Notes: generated from the sequence alone by a model not told the origin. A DNA stretch of 64,000 nucleotides from Candidatus Nomurabacteria bacterium (GCA_020632415.1 JACKFO010000002.1:711918-775917), one strand, 5' to 3'. Positions 10,746-57,290 are shown, counted from the stretch's first letter. Translations and numbers: made by a program.

Positions 10746-11606
10746 ATGAAAAAAATTCGTAAAGCAGTAATTGCTGTAGCTGGGTCTGGAACAAGGTTGT
10801 TGCCAGCTACCAAGTCTATGCCCAAAGAAATGTTGCCGGTTGTCGATAAGCCGATCATTCAATTAGTAGTCGAAGAGTTGGTTGCCGGAGGAATTGAAGA
10901 TATTATTTTGGTAACAAAATGGGACAAAAAGCCACTTGAAGATCATTTTGATCATTCTTGGGCCTTGGAGCACGATTTAGCAGAAAGCGGTAAAAAAGAA
11001 AAATTAGCCGAAATGAAAAGAATTTCAGAGATGGCTAATTTTATTTATGTCCGCCAGAAAGGACCATATGGTAATGGAACCCCAGTGTTATCAGCAGCTA
11101 GTTTAGTTCAAGACGAAGCATTTATGTATGTTTGGGGTGATGACTTGGTAAGATCAAAAGTTCCTTTTGCCAAGCAGATGATTGATGATTATCAAAAAAC
11201 AGGACATTTAATGATTGGTGTTCAGAAAGTTCCTCGTAACCAAGTTGATCGTTATGGAATTGTTAGTCTCAAAGATAAAAAAACAATGCAGTTAAATGGC
11301 ATTATTGAAAAACCAGAGATTAAATCTGCTCCTTCTCAGTTGGCAGATTTTGGACGAATGATTTTAAATCAAGAAATTGTCGATATTCTTAAAAAAACTA
11401 AACTTGGAAAAGGAAATGAACTTTGGATTGTTGACGCTATTCGTGATTACATCCAGGCCGGAGGAGAGTTTTATGCCAAGGAAGTAAAAGATGGCGAATG
11501 GCTCACCACCGGAGATCCTTGGAACTTGTTGAGAGCAAATTTAGAATACGCTCTTGAAAGAAAAGATTTAAAACAAGCTTTAAAAAAATATTTAAAAAAT
11601 ATTTAA
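10746..11606 (+). CDS. galU: UTP--glucose-1-phosphate uridylyltransferase
   Basis: Signature AVIAVAGSGTRLLPATKSMPKEMLPVVDKPIIQ. Confidence 0.85.
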   Translation: MKKIRKAVIAVAGSGTRLLPATKSMPKEMLPVVDKPIIQLVVEELVAGGIEDIILVTKWDKKPLEDHFDHSWALEHDLAESGKKEKLAEMKRISEMANFIYVRQKGPYGNGTPVLSAASLVQDEAFMYVWGDDLVRSKVPFAKQMIDDYQKTGHLMIGVQKVPRNQVDRYGIVSLKDKKTMQLNGIIEKPEIKSAPSQLADFGRMILNQEIVDILKKTKLGKGNELWIVDAIRDYIQAGGEFYAKEVKDGEWLTTGDPWNLLRANLEYALERKDLKQALKKYLKNI

Positions 11607-11608
11607 GT

Positions 11609-12973
11609 ATGAAAAGATTGCGTTTTTCTATTTTGATTATTTTGGCGATTTTTATAATCACCACTGGTTTTGGTTGTAAACAAAATATTATCAATCAAGC
11701 CCAGTTTGAACCGGTTGCTTTAGAATATTGGGGAGTTTGGGACACTCCGGAACAAATGCAAAAAATTATTGACGCTTATCAAGCTACTCACCCTACGATT
11801 AAAGTTAAATATCGCAATTTTCGTTATGATGAGTATGAACAAAAATTATTAGAAGCTGCTTGGGAAGATCGGGTACCGGATATTTTTATGATTCCGGCTA
11901 CTTGGCTCAAAAAATATCAAGACCGACTTTATCCAATGCCAGCGACAGTCAAGATTCCAGTCAAAGAAGTGCAAGGAACAATCAAACCAGAAGAGGTAAC
12001 AACCTTGAAGACTATCAATAGTTTAAGTAAGCAAGATGTCAAAGATCAATTTGTACAAGTTGTTTATGATGATGTGATTTTGGATGATCAGATTTACGGC
12101 CTGCCTTACTCAGTAGACACTTTAGTTACTTTTTATAATTTAGATTTATTAACTCAGAGTGGAATTCCTGAACCAATGGTAGATTTTCATGATTTAGTAG
12201 AGCATGTTCAGCAATATAAGTTATCAAAAATAGGGGCAGCTAATCAAGTTTTACAAGCAGGAGTTGCTTTGGGGACTGCTGATAATATTCCCCGTTTTTT
12301 CGATATTTTATCAAGCATCATGCTTCAAAATCAAGTCGAAGTTAAAGGAAAAAATTTCAGTCCACTACAAAGCAAAAGTTCAGCTACTAATTTAGCAGAA
12401 GTGTTTAATTTTTATACTGACTTTGCTGATCCGACCAAAGCAATTTATTCATGGAACGATGATCTGCCGAATGCCTTTGAAATGTTTACGCAAGGAAAGT
12501 TGGCTTATTTTTTTGGCTATAGTTATCATGCTGATGAATTACGCAAAAGAGGCGTTCAGTTTGATTGGGAGATTACTAATTTTCCAAAGACCAGAGGCTC
12601 AGAAGGAAGCGTCTATTATTCTAACTACTGGGTAAATGTAGTTCCGCAAAAATCAAAAAATAAGGATGCTGCTTGGAATTTTATTCAGAGCACAGTCAAT
12701 AAAAATATCGTGACAAATTATCTTAGTCCAAATAAAAAACCAACGGCCTTAAGATCTTTGATCAATGGCCAATTACAAGATGAAGATATTCGAATTTTCG
12801 CCTCACAAGTATTGACGGCTGATAATTGGTACGATGGTTATGATATTGATTTAGCTGAAAAATATACTGCGGATTTTATTAATTCTGTTTTAGCTGGAGA
12901 AATAGAAATAGACAATGAGGGTCTGGCATTTTTTGTCAGTCGAATCAATCAAACTTATAAAAAACAAGAATAA
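11609..12973 (+). CDS. ABC transporter extracellular solute-binding lipoprotein (family 1, sugar-type)
   Basis: Lipobox TTGFGC after the signal peptide; SBP-like length and composition. Confidence 0.55.
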   Translation: MKRLRFSILIILAIFIITTGFGCKQNIINQAQFEPVALEYWGVWDTPEQMQKIIDAYQATHPTIKVKYRNFRYDEYEQKLLEAAWEDRVPDIFMIPATWLKKYQDRLYPMPATVKIPVKEVQGTIKPEEVTTLKTINSLSKQDVKDQFVQVVYDDVILDDQIYGLPYSVDTLVTFYNLDLLTQSGIPEPMVDFHDLVEHVQQYKLSKIGAANQVLQAGVALGTADNIPRFFDILSSIMLQNQVEVKGKNFSPLQSKSSATNLAEVFNFYTDFADPTKAIYSWNDDLPNAFEMFTQGKLAYFFGYSYHADELRKRGVQFDWEITNFPKTRGSEGSVYYSNYWVNVVPQKSKNKDAAWNFIQSTVNKNIVTNYLSPNKKPTALRSLINGQLQDEDIRIFASQVLTADNWYDGYDIDLAEKYTADFINSVLAGEIEIDNEGLAFFVSRINQTYKKQE

Positions 12974-12981
12974 AGATAAGT

Positions 12982-13902
12982 ATGAAAAAATTTATTAGTT
13001 TGGCTTTTAGCTTTTCTTTACTGTTTGTGCCCTTTATTTCACATGCTGGCTTTTTAGATGACTTGAGCTGCATTCCTTCTGGTAACTGCGGCTTACTTGA
13101 TGTGGAGTTTGGCTTTGTTTTGCTGACTAAGTTTTTAATCGGCAGCGTTGGCGCTTTGGCCTTACTTTATTTTATTTGGGGCGGCATTCAGTGGCTAACC
13201 TCTTATGGAAACTTGGAAAAAGTCAGACACGGTAGAGAAATAATGTTGCAAACCATCGTAGCTATAGTGATTGCTTTTTTGAGTTTTATTTTGGTTGAAT
13301 TTTTTATCAACGATGTTTTGCAAGCCAGGCAGCCGGTAATTTCTACTGGTTGTGCTGGAAAAACAATGGGAGCTAGTTGCGGAGAAGACAAGCTTCATGT
13401 TTGTACTGGTCAAAAATTTACCGGAGAAGACTCAATTCATAATGAGCGTTGTGTGACAAAATGTGAGCTCAAAAATTTACAAGACAAGGCTAATGTTTGG
13501 ACTTGTTTAGCGCCAGAGATTGCCAGTCAGGCAGGAGTAGAAAAAGAATTGAATTTATGTCCAGGGACAGAAATTTGTGTCAATGCCAATACTATTCCTT
13601 TACGAAATATACCGGTTACCGAATTTAACGATCAAAATCGTTGTTGTGTTGGAGCACCGACTAACAGCGGTTCCGCTTGTCGATCAATTGGGATATTAGA
13701 CACTTGCTTGCCAGGAACAATTTTAAGTGAAAATACTTGTAGTTCTTTGGCGATGTGCGATAGTAATTGGCACACAGATCCAGGTTGCTGTATTGAGGTT
13801 GATCCTGATTCTTCTTTTACTTGTCAGCAACAAACCCCAGGGACTATTTGTGAGTTTAATTTTTCTGCTAATTTATTATGCAGTAGTGTTCCGGGGTGTT
13901 AA
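12982..13902 (+). CDS. VirB2/TrbC-like pilin-family protein fused to a large cysteine-rich C-terminal domain
   Basis: Signal peptide, then the pilin core LLYFIWGGIQWLTSYGNLEKVRHGREIMLQTIVAIVIAFLSFILVEF shared with the four downstream paralogs. This is followed by about 190 aa containing about 26 Cys. Confidence 0.6.
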   Translation: MKKFISLAFSFSLLFVPFISHAGFLDDLSCIPSGNCGLLDVEFGFVLLTKFLIGSVGALALLYFIWGGIQWLTSYGNLEKVRHGREIMLQTIVAIVIAFLSFILVEFFINDVLQARQPVISTGCAGKTMGASCGEDKLHVCTGQKFTGEDSIHNERCVTKCELKNLQDKANVWTCLAPEIASQAGVEKELNLCPGTEICVNANTIPLRNIPVTEFNDQNRCCVGAPTNSGSACRSIGILDTCLPGTILSENTCSSLAMCDSNWHTDPGCCIEVDPDSSFTCQQQTPGTICEFNFSANLLCSSVPGC

Positions 13903-13923
13903 TTAAATAGTTTTTTAAAGCTT

Positions 13924-14262
13924 ATGAAAAAAATAATTTTAGTATTTAGTATCTTATTGTTAGCGCCAATTCATTTCGCTTCAGCTGTCCAACTTTACAA
14001 TCCTTTGGGAAATGGTGTTAATAATTTTCCAGCTTTAGTTAACAATGTGATCAAAGGCGTCTTAGGGTTAACTGGCGCAGTTGCTTTGGTAATGATCGTC
14101 ATCGGTGGTGTGACCTGGATGACTTCTGCTGGTAATGCAGATCGAGTTAGACGTGGTAAAGATACTTTACTTTGGGCGATTTTAGGCTTGATTATCATTT
14201 TTATTAGTTACGCAGTAATTGATTTTGTTTTCAAGGCTTTGTTAAATGGTCAAGCTGCTTAA
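13924..14262 (+). CDS. VirB2/TrbC-like (T4SS-type) pilin family protein
   Basis: Signal peptide and two hydrophobic helices. The core VIGGVTWMTSAGNADRVRRGKDTLLWAILGLIIIFISYAV resembles the VirB2 ...IGISWMFGRAS... topology. Confidence 0.55.
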   Translation: MKKIILVFSILLLAPIHFASAVQLYNPLGNGVNNFPALVNNVIKGVLGLTGAVALVMIVIGGVTWMTSAGNADRVRRGKDTLLWAILGLIIIFISYAVIDFVFKALLNGQAA

Positions 14263-14342
14263 AGTTGATTGAAAAAAAACGTTCTTTGGTTTATAATGTA
14301 GCTATAATTATTAAAATATTTTAAATGAAAGGGGGTGGAAAA

Positions 14343-14690
14343 ATGAAAAAAATTTTGACAGCTTTATTACTAGTCGCTCCAATGATGGTTTCTGCTCAAG
14401 ATAATTTTGGTATTGATGATTTGACCAACACCGGTTTAGGTACTCGTGGTTTAAAATCAACAATTGCTCAATTACTTAACGTAGTTTTAAGTTTCTTAGG
14501 CATTATCGCCGTTTTAATCATCTTGTTAGGTGGTTTTAAATGGATGACTTCACAAGGCTCATCTGATAAAGTAGACGAAGCTAAAAAACTTATCGGCGCT
14601 GGCGTCGTTGGTTTAATCATCATCTTAGCTGCTTACGCTATTGTGCGTTTTGTCTTAACTGAGGTTTACTCTGCGACAACCGAGGCATAG
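14343..14690 (+). CDS. VirB2/TrbC-like pilin family protein (duplicate A)
   Basis: SD aaggggg lies 8 nt upstream of the ATG at 14343. The ORF-track start at 14325 merely translates the SD. Core LLGGFKWMTSQGSSDKVDEAKKLI. Confidence 0.55.
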   Translation: MKKILTALLLVAPMMVSAQDNFGIDDLTNTGLGTRGLKSTIAQLLNVVLSFLGIIAVLIILLGGFKWMTSQGSSDKVDEAKKLIGAGVVGLIIILAAYAIVRFVLTEVYSATTEA

Positions 14691-14797
14691 AGGCAGGGTA
14701 AGATGGGCTATTATAGTCTAGACTATAGTAGGCCAAAACTTGGCCTACTAAAGCGTAGATTATAAAAAATTGTTTTATAATGAAAGGGGGTGGAAAA

Positions 14798-15139
14798 ATG
14801 AAAAAAATTTTGACAGCTTTATTGCTAGTTGCTCCAATGGCCGCTTCTGCTCAAGCCAACTTTGGTATTAATGATTTAAATGGTACTGGTTTAGGTACCG
14901 CTGGTTTGAAGACAACAATCGGATCATTGCTTAATGTTGCTTTAAGTTTCTTAGGCATTATCGCCGTTTTAATCATCTTGTTAGGTGGTTTTAAATGGAT
15001 GACTTCACAAGGCTCATCTGATAAAGTAGACGAAGCTAAAAAACTTATCGGCGCTGGCGTCGTTGGTTTAATCATCATCTTAGCCGCTTACGCTATTGTT
15101 CGTTTCGTCTTAACCGAAGTTTATAACGCTACAACGTAG
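14798..15139 (+). CDS. VirB2/TrbC-like pilin family protein (duplicate B)
   Basis: The C-terminal half is near-identical to duplicate A at nucleotide level, while the N-terminal mature region has diverged. Same SD context. Confidence 0.55.
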   Translation: MKKILTALLLVAPMAASAQANFGINDLNGTGLGTAGLKTTIGSLLNVALSFLGIIAVLIILLGGFKWMTSQGSSDKVDEAKKLIGAGVVGLIIILAAYAIVRFVLTEVYNATT

Positions 15140-15226
15140 TTCGTAAACACAGCGTAACATAGGCTATTATAGTCTAGACTATAGTAGGCCAAGTTTTGGC
15201 CTACTAAAGCGTAGATTATAAATTTT

Positions 15227-15601
15227 ATGTATAAATTACTTTTTGCTTTTTTATTGTTAATGCCATTTCATTTTGCTTCAGCTTTGACCGCTGAAGAAGG
15301 CTTACGTAGCGCTGCTGAAGGTACTGGTTTGAGCATTGAAAAAAAGATTCCAGATTATATTGGAATGTTAATTCGCGGTGCTCTTGGTTTACTGGCTGCT
15401 ATTTTTTTGGTTTTGATTGTTTTGGCCGGATTTAAGTGGATGACCTCTGCTGGTAATTCTCAGAAGATAGAGAGCGCTAAAGAAACAATTCTTAACTCGG
15501 TTATTGGTTTGGTGATCGTTTTGGTTTCCTATGCGATTGTTGAGTTTGTTTTAAGAGCAATGAAAGGGGCAACTAATGCAGGTGGAGTAATTACGCAATA
15601 A
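15227..15601 (+). CDS. VirB2/TrbC-like pilin family protein
   Basis: Core VLAGFKWMTSAGNSQKIESAKETILNSVIGLVIVLVSYAIVEFV. Confidence 0.55.
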   Translation: MYKLLFAFLLLMPFHFASALTAEEGLRSAAEGTGLSIEKKIPDYIGMLIRGALGLLAAIFLVLIVLAGFKWMTSAGNSQKIESAKETILNSVIGLVIVLVSYAIVEFVLRAMKGATNAGGVITQ

Positions 15602-15616
15602 TTTTTTAAAAAATAG

Positions 15617-15653
15617 AGCCCTCTCGCAAGCTGATGCTGCGAGAGGGCTTTTG
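15617..15653. terminator. Bidirectional rho-independent terminator between convergent genes
   Basis: 12-bp stem agccctctcgca/tgcgagagggct flanked by T/A runs on both strands. Confidence 0.65.
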
Positions 15654-15668
15654 GTTCCAGAAGGATTA

Positions 15669-16280
15669 TCAGCGGAGCTCGACGTACCAGTCGACTGGCT
15701 TACCATTGAATTCCACCTTGTGACGATCGTCACGAATCGTCACCTTGGTGTAGTGGTTTTCTCCACGCGAAGTTTTCCAGTGAATGGTCATGGGGCCTGG
15801 GCTCAGGTAAAGCGCCTGACTAGCTTGACCGACTTCCAAGTGACCAACATTGCTGTAGCCACGGTAGGATACGATGTCAATTGGCTCTCGATAAGTATTG
15901 ATGAAGTAGCCTTCCAGTCGAGGCATGTTGTTTAGCAGGAAATCGTCTAGCTTAATTTCCTGAATTCCAGACCAGCGTCCGGTTCGCTGAATTGTGATCG
16001 CTTGTTCGTCTGAATATTGATCGATTTCGAGCCAGTACTTGACTCTCAGTCGAAGCTGGTCTTGGCGCGGCGTTTGAAAGCTGTGGCTTTGACCGGGCAG
16101 TAATTCAACGTAGGAGTTTCCCGAAGCTTCGGCCACGCTGAACATTACTCGCTCTCTGTCAGCTACGACTTTCCACTGACAAAACTCTTCGTTGTAATTC
16201 ATGCCACCATGGTAAGTGGCGCAGCCGGTCAGGAAGGCGACAAAGAGGATTGTCAGCCAGAGCAGTTTGTTGATCTTCAT
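15669..16280 (-). CDS. Hypothetical lipoprotein in a GC-rich island
   Basis: Signal peptide MKINKLLWLTILFVAFLTGC with lipobox. SD aggaaaag precedes the ATG at 16280. Local GC is about 50% against about 30% in the flanks. Confidence 0.55.
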   Translation of the reverse strand: MKINKLLWLTILFVAFLTGCATYHGGMNYNEEFCQWKVVADRERVMFSVAEASGNSYVELLPGQSHSFQTPRQDQLRLRVKYWLEIDQYSDEQAITIQRTGRWSGIQEIKLDDFLLNNMPRLEGYFINTYREPIDIVSYRGYSNVGHLEVGQASQALYLSPGPMTIHWKTSRGENHYTKVTIRDDRHKVEFNGKPVDWYVELR

Positions 16281-42958: not shown

Positions 42959-43762
42959 TTATATTTTTAGTTTGTTTAGTTGATTTTTGAGTGTCTGATG
43001 GATTTTTTTGTTAGCAGCTAATAAGGTTTTTGATTTTAAATTCCATTCTTTGCCTTGAAAGTCAGTGACCTTTCCACCGGCCTCACGAATTAAAATTATT
43101 CCTGCTGCAATATCCCAAATCTTTGCTTGCGCTACTATCAAGGCCTCGGTATTGCCGGCAGCCACCATGGCTAGTTCTAAAGTTGTGCTGCCAAAGTGTC
43201 GGCAATCACGCGCAACTTCATGAAAGTGTTCGTAAACTTTGTAAGCTTGTCGATGAGTCTTTAGGGTCTGTCCATGACAGTAAGTAATGAAACTTTTTTT
43301 CAGTAAATTAATTTCAGAAACTTTAATTTTTTTATTGTTTCTAAAGGCGCCAGCCCCAGAAACAGCATGGTACAACTCGTTTAAAACAGGCATGTAAGTC
43401 ACACCCAAGACAATTTGATCTTTATAAAGCAGACTAACCGAAACAGTAAACAGGGGATTGTGAATCGTAAAATTACTAGTGCCATCCATTGGATCGATAA
43501 CCCATGAATAGTCACTACTTTTATTATTCTTGCCACTTTCTTCAGACAAAACAGCGTAATCGGGAAAGTTTTTGTTTAGAATATTTAAAATAGTGCCTTC
43601 AGATTTTTTATCGCACCAAGTGACAATTTCATCGTGTTTTTTGTAAGTTGCCTTACCGCGTTGCCATTTCTTAAATTCTTTTTCCAAAGCTTCGCCAGCT
43701 TTGATTACGGCTTGTTTAACAATTTTTAATTCTTTTTGGTAGTTCATTTTTATGCTTGACAT
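42959..43762 (-). CDS. Inositol monophosphatase family protein (SuhB-like)
   Basis: WVIDPMDGTSNF and IMPase-like length. Confidence 0.75.
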   Translation of the reverse strand: MSSIKMNYQKELKIVKQAVIKAGEALEKEFKKWQRGKATYKKHDEIVTWCDKKSEGTILNILNKNFPDYAVLSEESGKNNKSSDYSWVIDPMDGTSNFTIHNPLFTVSVSLLYKDQIVLGVTYMPVLNELYHAVSGAGAFRNNKKIKVSEINLLKKSFITYCHGQTLKTHRQAYKVYEHFHEVARDCRHFGSTTLELAMVAAGNTEALIVAQAKIWDIAAGIILIREAGGKVTDFQGKEWNLKSKTLLAANKKIHQTLKNQLNKLKI

Positions 43763-44274
43763 TTATTACTTGTTCCACAATTATAGCTGCAGCAATCAGA
43801 ATCAGAGGAACATCCTGAATCATTTGCCACACAAGATTGACAAAAATCTACGCCATCGTTATGTTCAAAACATTTTTCATCGGTACAAACAATTAGTTCA
43901 TTTGGATTTGATGTTTTTTGAATTTCTAGACAAAATTTTTGTTTTTGGTAATTTGATCTTATTTTTCGATAAGAATAATTTTCTATAGTTGGCCAACGCC
44001 AATTATTCAAAAAATTATAGCAAAGAAATTCTGGAGGCGTCGGAACACTTAAAGAACATTGAAGCCCTGTGCATTGTAAATTTGCACCAGAGTCTAAACA
44101 CAAAATAGCTTCGGTTTGCAGAGCTTTGATCTCTCCTAGTGCAGCGGCATTTTTAGCATCTTCGCGTGCTGAATTTAAATTGATTACCGCCACAGAAGAT
44201 AGTATGCCAATAATTGAAATTACTACTAATAATTCCACTAAAGTAAAACCTTTTTTGTTTTTCTTTTTGATCAT
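43750..44274 (-). CDS. Type IV pilin (prepilin) with a Cys-rich C-terminal domain
   Basis: Class III leader MIKKKNKKG|FTLVELLVVISIIGIL. The start at 44274 abuts the upstream stop. About 13 Cys in the last 90 aa. Confidence 0.7.
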   Translation of the reverse strand: MIKKKNKKGFTLVELLVVISIIGILSSVAVINLNSAREDAKNAAALGEIKALQTEAILCLDSGANLQCTGLQCSLSVPTPPEFLCYNFLNNWRWPTIENYSYRKIRSNYQKQKFCLEIQKTSNPNELIVCTDEKCFEHNDGVDFCQSCVANDSGCSSDSDCCSYNCGTSNKCQA

Positions 44275-44780
44275 TTTATTTCGTTTAATAAAATTAACCT
44301 TGCTTTGAGAGTGGACATTTCTATTATAGCAAATGTTGGGGCACAACGGATATTGGCAACATTGCCAGAGTTTAAAATTTTGGTTTTTTCCCAAATTTGT
44401 TCCCAAGGTTGATGAGTGTGTCCGTGTAGAGCTAAATCGTATTTAATTTTTGATTTTGCAAATATTTTTTTTAAGGTTGTTGGGTAATGAGTGAAAATGA
44501 TTTTTTTATTCTCAATTTCTGCTGTGCCGACATTAGCAAATAGTTTTATATTTTTTAGTTGTTTTTGTAAATTTTCAAAACCTAAAATATCGTGGTCAAC
44601 ATTACCAAATACTGCCCAGGAAGGAATTTTTAATTCATCTAATAAAAGCCAAGCTTCTAAACTTTGAACGTCGCCAGTACAAATCAGATAATCTATTTTT
44701 TCTTTTTTGATTAGTGCCAGGGCTTTGTTTAGATTAGGAATGTTATCATGAATGTCAGAAATGACAGCGAGTTTTGACAT
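44271..44780 (-). CDS. Metallophosphoesterase (YfcE/MJ0936-like)
   Basis: DIHDN...GDV...GNVDH...HGHTH calcineurin-like motifs. Confidence 0.7.
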   Translation of the reverse strand: MSKLAVISDIHDNIPNLNKALALIKKEKIDYLICTGDVQSLEAWLLLDELKIPSWAVFGNVDHDILGFENLQKQLKNIKLFANVGTAEIENKKIIFTHYPTTLKKIFAKSKIKYDLALHGHTHQPWEQIWEKTKILNSGNVANIRCAPTFAIIEMSTLKARLILLNEIK

Positions 44781-55892: not shown

Positions 55893-56126
55893 ATGAAAAA
55901 GCTAATTAAAATTCAATTTGCTGTCCTCTTGTTAGGCACTGTTTTTGCTTGGGGCAACTTTATTTGGGAGCTAGTTTACTATTTACAAGAAAAAGCTTGT
56001 CCAACCGGCTGCGTGGTTGGTTTGGTTAATCCATTTTTGACCCCTTGTTTTTATGGGGCTTGTTTTTTCTTAATTGCCTTTGTTTTAAGTGCAATGATTT
56101 TGAAAGAAAATAAAAAAGAAAATTAA
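55893..56126 (+). CDS. Hypothetical small Cys-containing membrane protein
   Basis: 77 aa with two TM helices; CPTGC...C...C. Confidence 0.35.
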   Translation: MKKLIKIQFAVLLLGTVFAWGNFIWELVYYLQEKACPTGCVVGLVNPFLTPCFYGACFFLIAFVLSAMILKENKKEN

Positions 56127-56710
56127 TGCAAATTGAATACGAAGCAACTTATTTAGATGTTGATAAAGACGAGGTAAGGAATCGATTAAAAAAAGCTCAT
56201 GCTAATTTAGTAAAACCAGAATTTTTGCAGCGACGTTGGGTTTGGCATCTACCTCAAGGACATGAAATTCCCGGCTCTTGGGTTAGAGTACGAGATGAAG
56301 GTGGTCAAATTACCATGAGCGTCAAAATTGTTGATGGCCGTGATCTAGAAGATCAAAAAGAAGTGATGATTAAAGTAGATGATTTTGAAAAAGCGCGAGA
56401 AATTTTAAATTTACTTGGTTGCCAAGAACGAGCTTATCAAGAAACTAAGAGGGAGTTATGGAATTTAAACGGTGTAGAAATCACTATTGATGAATGGCCG
56501 TTTTTAGAACCATTTGTGGAAATTGAAGGAAATTCAGAAAAACAAATCAAAGAAATTTCTGAAAAAATTGGCTTTGATTATAATCGAGCTCAATTTGGCT
56601 CAGCGGATTATTTTTATGCGGAGAAATATAATATTTCGATTGATGTTTTTAATAAAAAAACGCCTCGTTTAACTTTTGAAATGCAAAATCCTTTTATTAA
56701 AAAATCTTAG
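56126..56710 (+). CDS. CYTH-domain protein (triphosphate tunnel metalloenzyme / class IV adenylyl cyclase-like)
   Basis: N-terminal MQIEYEATYLDVD and size typical of standalone CYTH proteins. It is a paralog of the downstream convergent gene. Confidence 0.45.
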   Translation: MQIEYEATYLDVDKDEVRNRLKKAHANLVKPEFLQRRWVWHLPQGHEIPGSWVRVRDEGGQITMSVKIVDGRDLEDQKEVMIKVDDFEKAREILNLLGCQERAYQETKRELWNLNGVEITIDEWPFLEPFVEIEGNSEKQIKEISEKIGFDYNRAQFGSADYFYAEKYNISIDVFNKKTPRLTFEMQNPFIKKS

Positions 56711-56711
56711 G

Positions 56712-57290
56712 CTAAGGCCTAAGATTTTTTTCATCGTCAAAAGTAAAATATAATTTCGGCTGTTCAAAAGGTAATTGATTTTCTTTACAGTATTCCAAAA
56801 ATATTTCGGTACAATTTTTTTGTAAAGCTTGATTTAAATCAAGCTGATATTTTTGGCAAAATTGTTCAATCTCTTCTTCATTTCCTTCGATTTCTAAAAA
56901 GTCTTTGATAAATGGATATTGGTCAATCGTGATTTGTAGTTTTGGAAAGTATTTATTTTTTAAATAAATTCTAGTTTTTTCAGCTTTGGCTTGGGGGATA
57001 AAGCCTAAAGCCAAGATAAATTTTTCCGCGATCTCATCTTGGCTAATTGGAAATTCTAGCTCTTCGCGAACCAAAAGACTCTGGTGTTTTTCTCGGGGTC
57101 CTTTGTAGGTCAAAAAATATTGCGCATTTTCTTTTCTGAGACGCAATACTTTATCGTCTTTGGAAAAATCTAGTTTCGGATGATCAAAGTAAATGTCTAA
57201 GATTTTTTTCTTAGTCAAAATTTTAAAGTCAGAATTTTCCTGATAAAGATCAGGATCTTTAAGTTTAAATTTTGCTTCAATTTCTTTCAT
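56712..57290 (-). CDS. CYTH-domain protein (class IV adenylyl cyclase / triphosphatase-like)
   Basis: N-terminal MKEIEAKFKL (the EIExKF hallmark). Confidence 0.6.
   Translation of the reverse strand: MKEIEAKFKLKDPDLYQENSDFKILTKKKILDIYFDHPKLDFSKDDKVLRLRKENAQYFLTYKGPREKHQSLLVREELEFPISQDEIAEKFILALGFIPQAKAEKTRIYLKNKYFPKLQITIDQYPFIKDFLEIEGNEEEIEQFCQKYQLDLNQALQKNCTEIFLEYCKENQLPFEQPKLYFTFDDEKNLRP

Follow-up and report, generated by a model that had tools for sequence, protein, structure and literature searches.

Why should a bacterial chromosome carry five conjugative-type pilin genes in a row, with no gene for a conjugation machine beside them, and what would their products build? The question is raised by a 64 kb stretch of DNA from Candidatus Nomurabacteria (Patescibacteria), referred to here as the window, in which a first-pass annotation made from the sequence had pointed to a tandem array of five VirB2/TrbC-like pilin genes (H6761_03765–H6761_03785, here g1 to g5). 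We found all five open reading frames (ORFs) on the + strand between positions 12982 and 15601, as annotated (Table 1). Our best explanation, which we hold with moderate confidence, is that the array is a chromosomal VirB2-like pilin operon whose products form a heteromeric surface filament or conduit, likely assembled by a VirB4-type type IV secretion system (T4SS). A large part of bacterial diversity belongs to the Patescibacteria, which live attached to other microbes, and the T4SS and its pilins are essential in the sole Patescibacteria species so far examined. VirB2-like arrays in this phylum were already published between 2020 and 2025, and the locus adds a member to a known class; because both the gene family and its tandem arrays were on record, it leaves the overall picture unchanged.

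Kinship of the five proteins with VirB2/TrbC pilins

Hydropathy analysis revealed in each of the five proteins an N-terminal signal-type hydrophobic segment followed by two hydrophobic helices of about 30 residues each, the topology given in the first-pass annotation. AlphaFold2 (AF2) models of g1 and g5, a check that the annotation had proposed, returned a helix-loop-helix hairpin, with helices at residues 38-73 and 78-116 of g1 and at residues 21-53 and 58-98 of mature g5; the order of elements in the mature g5 model is alpha1, alpha2, loop, alpha3. Cleavage of the signal peptides is predicted from A-x-A sites. The sequence block that had been described as common to all five is real, with G..W.TS.G invariant, but it is less uniform than was claimed, as GGxxWMTS is exact in g2-g4 only (WLTS in g1, AG in g5). 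A second helix ending in SYA[IV] was found in g2 and g5 and not in g3 and g4 (AYAI) or g1 (SFIL). Identity between the proteins is 29-43% for nine of the ten pairs and 88% for g3 and g4.

All five proteins pass the curated T4SS_pilin model PF18895, whose gathering score is 26.6 bits: g1 does so narrowly, at 26.9 bits, and g2 and g5 reach 40.8 and 40.0 bits (g3 and g4, Table 1). Because a curated hidden Markov model (HMM) threshold is passed by every protein of the array, a chance match is excluded. Against TrbC (PF04956, 27.9 bits), g2 scores above the cut-off at 28.4 bits, g3 (23.5), g4 (22.7) and g5 (14.4) fall below it and g1 has no match; the HMM search suggested in the annotation thus came out positive throughout for PF18895 and for g2 alone for TrbC. 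The NCBIfam model NF045849 (Mbov_0395 pilin-like conjugal transfer protein; cut-off 40 bits) is matched by g5 at 45.6 bits, with the other four at 9.9-33 bits, below the cut-off. Among the short pilins of five syntenic loci, 19 of 19 matched PF18895 and 14 of 19 matched TrbC at E <= 0.01.

We then compared a profile of the array proteins with one of eight annotated virB2/trbC genes from plasmid records, all of them lying between virB1 and virB3. The two profiles aligned in hhalign with 66 columns in register (probability 71%, E = 3.6e-5, score 33.2). Reversed profiles scored 12-15 (E 0.08-0.27), and 30 local shuffles averaged 15.3 +/- 3.8 with a maximum of 28, never reaching the real score. 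This comparison gives moderate support for homology between the array pilins and genuine VirB2/TrbC, and with the PF18895 and TrbC matches it bears out the family assignment made at first pass. In the alignment, GISWMFGR of VirB2 stands in register with GFKWMTSxG of the array as a tryptophan-containing motif that ends helix 1. Like Agrobacterium VirB2 and other TrbC/VirB2 proteins (PF04956), the array pilins have a cleaved leader (predicted here), two hydrophobic helices, a short polar loop and a mature length of about 70-100 residues. They differ from Gram-negative VirB2 in belonging to a monoderm host, in a loop that is about 7 residues longer and in that only g2 attains the TrbC gathering score. 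Whereas Gram-negative virB2 lies between virB1 and virB3, the array has no adjacent virB1, virB3 or virB4, and it offers several specialised paralogues in place of one major pilin plus VirB5.

Other assignments were rejected. As annotated, the proteins are not type IV (PilA-type) pilins, since none matches PF07963/TIGR02532 and the prepilin motif G|FxxxE is absent from all five. A better match to a holin-type family, which the annotation had named as evidence that would speak against it, was not found in Pfam or NCBIfam; the remaining matches to holins or other small membrane families lie below cut-off and are weaker than PF18895, and a sub-threshold NCBIfam match named 'FILTED' gave no lead from the literature.

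The family is large, with 63,392 representatives at 50% identity matching at E <= 1e-3. In many of its members, 4-17 pilin modules are concatenated in a single polypeptide, for example P0034 (820 amino acids), P0038 (386 amino acids) and P0037 (1775 amino acids, 17 matched stretches); the sequences of P0034 and P0038 are continuous ORFs and not merged genes.

Four positional classes in a conserved chromosomal module

To place the array among its relatives, we used a scan of species-representative genomes, which found 403 related stretches; the locus statistics given here refer to the best 80 of the 403. These 80 loci were picked by similarity to g5 and therefore represent the orthologous module rather than all pilin arrays. 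At least three pilins are present in 78 of the 80, usually 5-6 and at most 12, and within a locus they all share a strand. When all array pilins of five loci were placed in a tree, four clades, A, B, C and D, emerged that track gene position: g1 belongs to class A, g2 to class B, g3 and g4 to class C and g5 to class D. Class C is duplicated within genomes in this tree (the pair in locus L001 is 86% identical), and class B, a separate ortholog clade, is the most TrbC-like and the most conserved class, very strongly so. The order of a Cys-tailed pilin followed by B, C and D is common among the 80 species-level loci. Because four positional ortholog classes have been conserved, the paralogues are better understood as specialised subunits than as free antigenic variants.

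The conserved order extends beyond the pilins. Contigs with a g1 ortholog share a galU-like gene, a solute-binding protein (SBP) gene, a long pilin gene, 3-4 short pilin genes and a convergent gene of about 210 codons, after which come (a DUF2079 gene,) yebC, ruvC and glgA. In the window, the SBP gene ends 8 nt before g1 and encodes an orphan lipoprotein of carbohydrate type with weak GanS/MalE similarity, whose N-terminal part ends in ...GFGC; no ABC permease or ATPase partner for it lies adjacent or elsewhere in the window. Of the 71 loci whose sequence reaches far enough, 57 have a same-strand SBP homolog as the immediate upstream neighbour of the array, mostly at a gap of -3 to +14 bp. The GalU-like protein scores 276 bits against the NCBIfam galU model, below its cut-off of 326.8, and 42 of 62 related loci have a same-strand homolog no more than 2.5 kb upstream. 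One Wzx-like gene and two Wzy_C genes lie further upstream of this pair, and a DUF2079 protein and a sulfatase/phosphoglycerol-transferase-like protein are encoded downstream of the array, so the flanks are as the annotation had them. The module of a galU-like gene, an SBP lipoprotein gene and four-class pilins A-B-C-D is ancient and widely conserved.

Two observations on the loci may be added. L007 and L008, the loci of P0033, have their last three pilin genes at identical coordinates and 7 and 9 pilin genes in total, which indicates that array size varies among close relatives. Many of the 80 loci come from metagenome-assembled genomes labelled 'uncultured Gammaproteobacteria bacterium' (binchicken co-assemblies) with Patescibacteria-like gene content; these labels look like placeholders or errors.

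The lead pilin, g1, consists of a signal peptide, a VirB2-like hairpin at residues ~38-116 and a C-terminal Cys-rich ectodomain with 20 cysteines. In the AF2 model the ectodomain forms two confident subdomains, at residues ~122-208 and 218-306 (predicted local distance difference test score about 85), and fold searches found no solved-structure relative of this tail. Full-length g1 orthologs are rare, with 19 matches in 5.8 billion proteins. Class A identity across lineages is only 40-50%, and 24 cysteine columns are invariant among 11 orthologs. The first pilin bears a Cys-rich tail in 32 of the 80 loci, and all 32 first-position tails of at least 60 residues have even cysteine counts. The mature N-terminal segment of class A also holds two more invariant cysteines, C30 and C36 of g1, and a comparable CxxxxxxxC insertion is seen in the mature N-terminal segment of the L004 class B ortholog; in both cases the cysteines suggest a small disulfide loop in an exposed N-terminal segment. 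A giant protein at L028:2505-9440 (2311 amino acids) joins an N-terminal pilin module to a long Cys-rich tail with 91 cysteines.

The surroundings of the array bear on whether it could be a remnant or cargo of an integrated conjugative element (ICE), or a set of unrelated small membrane proteins such as holins. A Pfam scan of the window ORFs of at least 100 amino acids showed ordinary chromosomal DNA with housekeeping genes: an rpoC fragment, ftsK, recA, Wzx/Wzy-like genes, the galU-like gene, ruvC, glgA and the gene for PBP1, as well as uvrB, polA, the genes for trigger factor and H+-PPase, nusA, tsaD and valS; five tRNA genes also lie in the window. The few window ORFs outside the scan lie within annotated genes of the other strand or share most of their length with them. 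VirB4, VirB6, VirB3, VirD4, relaxase and integrase genes were all absent from the scanned ORFs, in agreement with the annotation as regards VirB4, VirB6, VirD4 and relaxase. An ICE or holin origin could draw on the passing match of g5 to a model named for a Mycoplasma ICE pilin-like protein and on the proneness of short hydrophobic proteins to spurious matches. The Mbov_0395 family (NF045849, Mycoplasma ICEs) is indeed like g5 in consisting of small two-helix pilin-like proteins of wall-less or monoderm bacteria, but it resides in ICEs, whereas the array lies in chromosomal housekeeping DNA, with rpoC, ftsK, recA, ruvC, polA and nusA on its two sides. Dozens of species-level lineages share the synteny of the module, and the window lacks genes for an integrase, a relaxase and a coupling protein. 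The predicted cleavable signal peptides, the five curated HMM matches out of five and the profile score above composition-preserving controls all argue against spurious similarity. We consider either origin extremely improbable; housekeeping context, recurrent synteny and curated HMM matches effectively refute them. That the array is fixed in the chromosome and is not a conjugative element, as had been proposed, is supported by this context and by its recurrence in many Patescibacteria lineages.

Expression signals, gene conversion and an RNA stem-loop at the class C genes

To see how the classes might differ in output, we compared their translation signals. A strong Shine-Dalgarno site was found only in class C (duplex energies of about -12 to -13 kcal/mol, versus -1.1 or weaker in A, B and D), and g2, the class B gene, has none. 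All five loci compared have the site ahead of their first class C copy; on second copies it is present in the window and in L004 and absent in L001. The true starts of g3 and g4 are likely the second ATGs of their ORFs, each of which follows GAAAGGGGGTGG, giving proteins of 115 and 113 amino acids. A candidate sigma-70-like promoter lies ahead of g3 (Table 1). The annotation had raised the idea of major and minor subunits, and positional orthology together with strong expression signals in class C alone supports it; class C (g3/g4) is probably the major subunit.

g4 is a tandem duplicate of g3, and the duplicated unit takes in the Shine-Dalgarno site and a downstream hairpin; the duplication was detected by pairwise alignment and not reported by Tandem Repeats Finder. 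The two genes share an identical run of 144 nt (14486-14629 in g3) that spans helix 1, the loop and helix 2. Synonymous divergence (pS) is 0.08 in this core, compared with 0.64 and 0.75 in the mature N-terminal segment and the C-terminal tail, respectively, which indicates that the duplication is old and that the core was recently homogenised by gene conversion. The L001 class C pair has the same pattern of a homogenised core. Gene conversion would thus keep the polymerisation core of the C copies identical, and the exposed N- and C-terminal segments would diverge. An independent read-archive assembly of the same organism (L010) has a contig that stops ~90 nt past g2, just before g3, as is expected of a near-identical g3/g4 repeat in a short-read assembly.

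Divergence of the exposed segments also raises the question of whether the array is a cassette for antigenic or host-range variation, with alternative pilin versions swapped or differentially expressed, as has been proposed for the virB2 genes of Bartonella and Anaplasma; the annotation had offered antigenic variation as one possibility, and PMC12102498 suggests such a role. The tandem virB2 paralogues of Bartonella and Anaplasma (PMC12102498) are likewise diverged copies in a row whose exposed parts vary, most of the differences between g3 and g4 fall in the exposed N-terminal segment and the C-terminal tail around the conversion tract, and pilin number differs in close relatives (7 versus 9 in L007 and L008; 3-4 short pilins in syntenic loci). 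Whereas those arrays are read as antigenic or host-range variants, the array here consists of ortholog classes with differing architectures and expression signals. Positional orthologs A-D are kept across lineages in which class A identity has fallen to 40-50%, class B is very strongly conserved, strong expression signals are confined to class C, and the window holds no invertible element, recombinase or silent-cassette arrangement. We therefore think a variation cassette quite unlikely: each position is a conserved ortholog class, and what remains of the proposal is that the class C duplicates differ in their exposed N-terminal segments.

In the window, a stem-loop of -31 to -35 kcal/mol comes after each class C gene. 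In other lineages the element stands behind the last class C copy and in L001 behind the first; we found it at L001, L003, L004, L006, L009, L012, L014-L022, L027, L046, L087 and L099-L137. An alignment of 20 distinct copies has 18 pairs, with 98.6% of cells paired and 4 compensatory pairs, and its covariation score was reached by none of 500 shuffles and by no slid register. The sense strand has many G.U pairs, which points to an element that acts as RNA, and the lack of a U-tract indicates that it is not a canonical terminator. No Rfam family matched it. An invariant 19-mer of the element occurs in the window only after g3 and after g4. An independent metagenome collection yielded 39 exact 19-mer sites, every one of them immediately 3' of a pilin ORF; this ORF carries the class C signature in 38 of the 39, and another pilin gene comes next in 33 of the 34 sites with enough downstream sequence. 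The 5' arm, TAGTCTAGACTATAGTAGG, which holds the palindrome TATAGTCTAGACTATA, is nearly invariant, and the 3' arm varies by G.U-compatible changes. This greater conservation of the 5' arm suggests a second constraint on it, for example protein binding or an alternative fold.

In E. coli pap-type pilus operons, a stem-loop behind the major-subunit gene raises its relative expression. The array resembles them in having a strong ribosome-binding site and then a stable hairpin before a minor-subunit gene; the protein families and assembly pathways are unrelated, and a function for the hairpin here is suggested by its position, covariation and specificity. By stabilising the upstream transcript or attenuating read-through, the stem-loop would probably set the subunit ratio.

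Proposed assembly of the array products and other features of the window

How would such an array be used by its host? In the model that we favour, the precursors would be exported by Sec and their signal peptides cleaved, leaving the pilins seated in the membrane with outward-facing N and C termini; this topology would place the class A Cys-rich domain outside the cell as well. Class C would be the abundant major subunit and B and D minor ones, as the sequence signals suggest, and class A, with its disulfide-bonded ectodomain of ~190 residues, could serve as a low-copy tip, adhesin or initiator subunit. Together the subunits would form a heteromeric surface filament or conduit for contact or exchange with the host cell. 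The machine that assembles it would likely be a Patescibacteria VirB4-type T4SS encoded elsewhere in the genome.

Published arrays are consistent with such a system. A search of 3,035 Patescibacteria genomes with PF04956 and PF18895 found VirB4 in 2,417 assemblies, often near dnaA in Paceibacteria, and VirB2-like pilins in 1,948 VirB4-bearing assemblies, near virB4 in 1,135 of them; 383 assemblies contained a total of 441 arrays, each made up of 2-11 pilin genes, and identity within arrays averaged 25% with a maximum of 54% (PMC12102498; Quiñonero-Coronel 2025). The pilin array in the T4SS locus of Southlakia epibionticum is essential (Wang 2023, PMC10633639; PMC12857230), and in methanogen-parasitising Paceibacteria the genes for T4SS pilins rank with the most strongly expressed of those for secreted proteins (PMC10936435). 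The array studied here shares the PF18895/PF04956 family and the phylum with these Patescibacteria arrays (those of PMC12102498, the S. epibionticum ML1 array and the Sec-secreted array of Nanosynbacter lyticus TM7x), and also their tandem same-strand paralogues of low identity, chromosomal location and lack of a relaxase. Its five consecutive genes fall within the array definition of PMC12102498, at least two PF18895/PF04956 genes in a Patescibacteria genome, in tandem or with a single non-pilin gene between them, and the 88% identity of g3 and g4 takes it outside the within-array divergence seen there. The ML1 array (SEML1_0006-0019) lies inside a virB4 cluster, whereas the array here is at least 13 kb from any T4SS gene on one side and 48 kb on the other and, unlike the ML1 array, is coupled to an SBP gene, begins with a Cys-rich pilin and possesses an RNA hairpin of its own. 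In the literature searched, the coverage of which was incomplete, we came across no report of the SBP linkage, the four-class architecture, the signals and hairpin specific to class C, the g3/g4 conversion tract, the disulfide-type ectodomain of the lead pilin or the lack of VirB4 near such arrays.

Several points weigh against an operon served by a VirB4-type T4SS. Neither the window nor the 10 kb around each of the 80 orthologous arrays yielded a VirB4, VirB6 or VirB3 gene, and an inspection of 90 pilin loci found no VirB4 nearby, with large or Walker-A ORFs being PPDK, PBP1, SMC, FtsK, IF2, PilB or of unknown family. Fold searches were non-specific, as generic helical hairpins ranked above solved conjugative pilins and no match had E < 0.1, and two family profiles run against all PDB chains found no VirB2 or TraA and only chance matches to eIF2B. 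The tight coupling to an SBP is not known from any characterised T4SS pilus, and the assignment of major and minor subunits relies on sequence signals.

Some of these points could be accommodated by a T4SS-independent envelope complex, in which the pilins and the co-translated SBP would form a membrane-embedded or wall-spanning assembly, for example an uptake conduit or a receptor for glycans from the host, rather than an extruded pilus. VirB4 is absent within 10 kb of all 80 arrays, the SBP whose gene adjoins the array in 57 of 71 loci lacks an ABC permease partner, GalU-like and other envelope genes flank the array, and the natural polypeptides with 4-17 pilin modules fused together would span the membrane many times. 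However, adjacency of the SBP gene is no proof of physical interaction, and concatenated modules could pack as a filament because both of their termini are outside. VirB4 is present in about 80% of Patescibacteria assemblies, in which pilins away from virB4 are common (PMC12102498), and the proteins are homologous to VirB2/TrbC, whose characterised members are extracted from the membrane by VirB4-type machines. We regard the T4SS-independent complex as possible but unlikely, and retain a surface filament or conduit assembled by a T4SS as the better account. SBP-linked arrays in VirB4-less genomes would bear on whether these pilins need a T4SS.

A broader proposal, which we put forward tentatively and think doubtful, is that the SBP-coupled A-B-C-D module is a distinct ancient envelope machine of Paceibacteria and ABY1-type Patescibacteria, separate from virB4-linked pilins, in which the SBP and the disulfide-rich lead pilin would capture glycans of the host surface at the tip or base of the polymer and the operon-specific RNA would set the subunit ratio. 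The four-class architecture, the candidate major subunit C, the candidate adhesin or tip A, the linked SBP and the RNA at the class C junction are handles for experiments in the existing Paceibacteria co-cultures.

Table 1 Positions of the array genes, their signals and other features in the window
Feature	Position	Strand	Evidence or description
g1, class A pilin, H6761_03765	12982..13902	+	306 amino acids
g2, class B pilin, H6761_03770 by position	13924..14262	+	112 amino acids
g3, class C pilin copy 1	14343..14690 (ORF from 14325)	+	PF18895 33.7 bits
g4, class C pilin copy 2	14798..15139 (ORF from 14780)	+	PF18895 33.5 bits
g5, class D pilin, H6761_03785, last gene of the array	15227..15601	+	124 amino acids
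Sigma-70-like promoter candidate before g3, TTGAAA-17-TATAAT	14269..14297	+	11/12 consensus positions, consensus match only
Shine-Dalgarno site of g3, GAAAGGGGGTGGA	14327..14339	+	anti-Shine-Dalgarno duplex -12.0 kcal/mol
Shine-Dalgarno site, second copy, for g4	14782-14794	+	same site as g3
RNA stem-loop copy 1, after g3	14715..14761 (element to about 14706-14773)	+	intergenic minimum free energy -34.6 kcal/mol
RNA stem-loop copy 2, after g4, just before g5 start	15171..15217	+	same evidence as copy 1
GalU-like UTP-glucose-1-phosphate uridylyltransferase gene	10746..11606	+	Pfam NTP_transferase
Orphan carbohydrate-type solute-binding lipoprotein (SBP) gene	11609..12973	+	Pfam SBP_bac_8, SBP_bac_1
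GC-rich hairpin between array and convergent gene	15617..15649		13-bp stem, 8 GC pairs, T-run
Convergent lipoprotein gene, unknown family	15669..16280	-	lipobox LTGC
Type IV (prepilin-type, N_methyl motif) pilin gene	43750-44406	-	PF07963/TIGR02532-type match

Beyond g5, the array is separated from the convergent lipoprotein gene by a GC-rich hairpin (minimum free energy -31 kcal/mol), with UUUU next on the + strand, which is probably a bidirectional terminator. The lipoprotein has no match in Pfam or NCBIfam; its orthologs keep their position in the closer relatives L001, L003, L004, L006 and L009, and a homolog is detectable in only 8 of 64 wider loci. Elsewhere in the window there is a genuine type IV pilin gene (Table 1), so that both pilin systems are encoded by the same organism. 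On its 5' side, on the same strand, lie an overlapping ORF with a metallophosphoesterase annotation and another without a family assignment. Two neighbouring CYTH-domain genes, one on the + strand (56126-56710) and one on the - strand (56712-57290), converge, and after them come three small ORFs without a family match.

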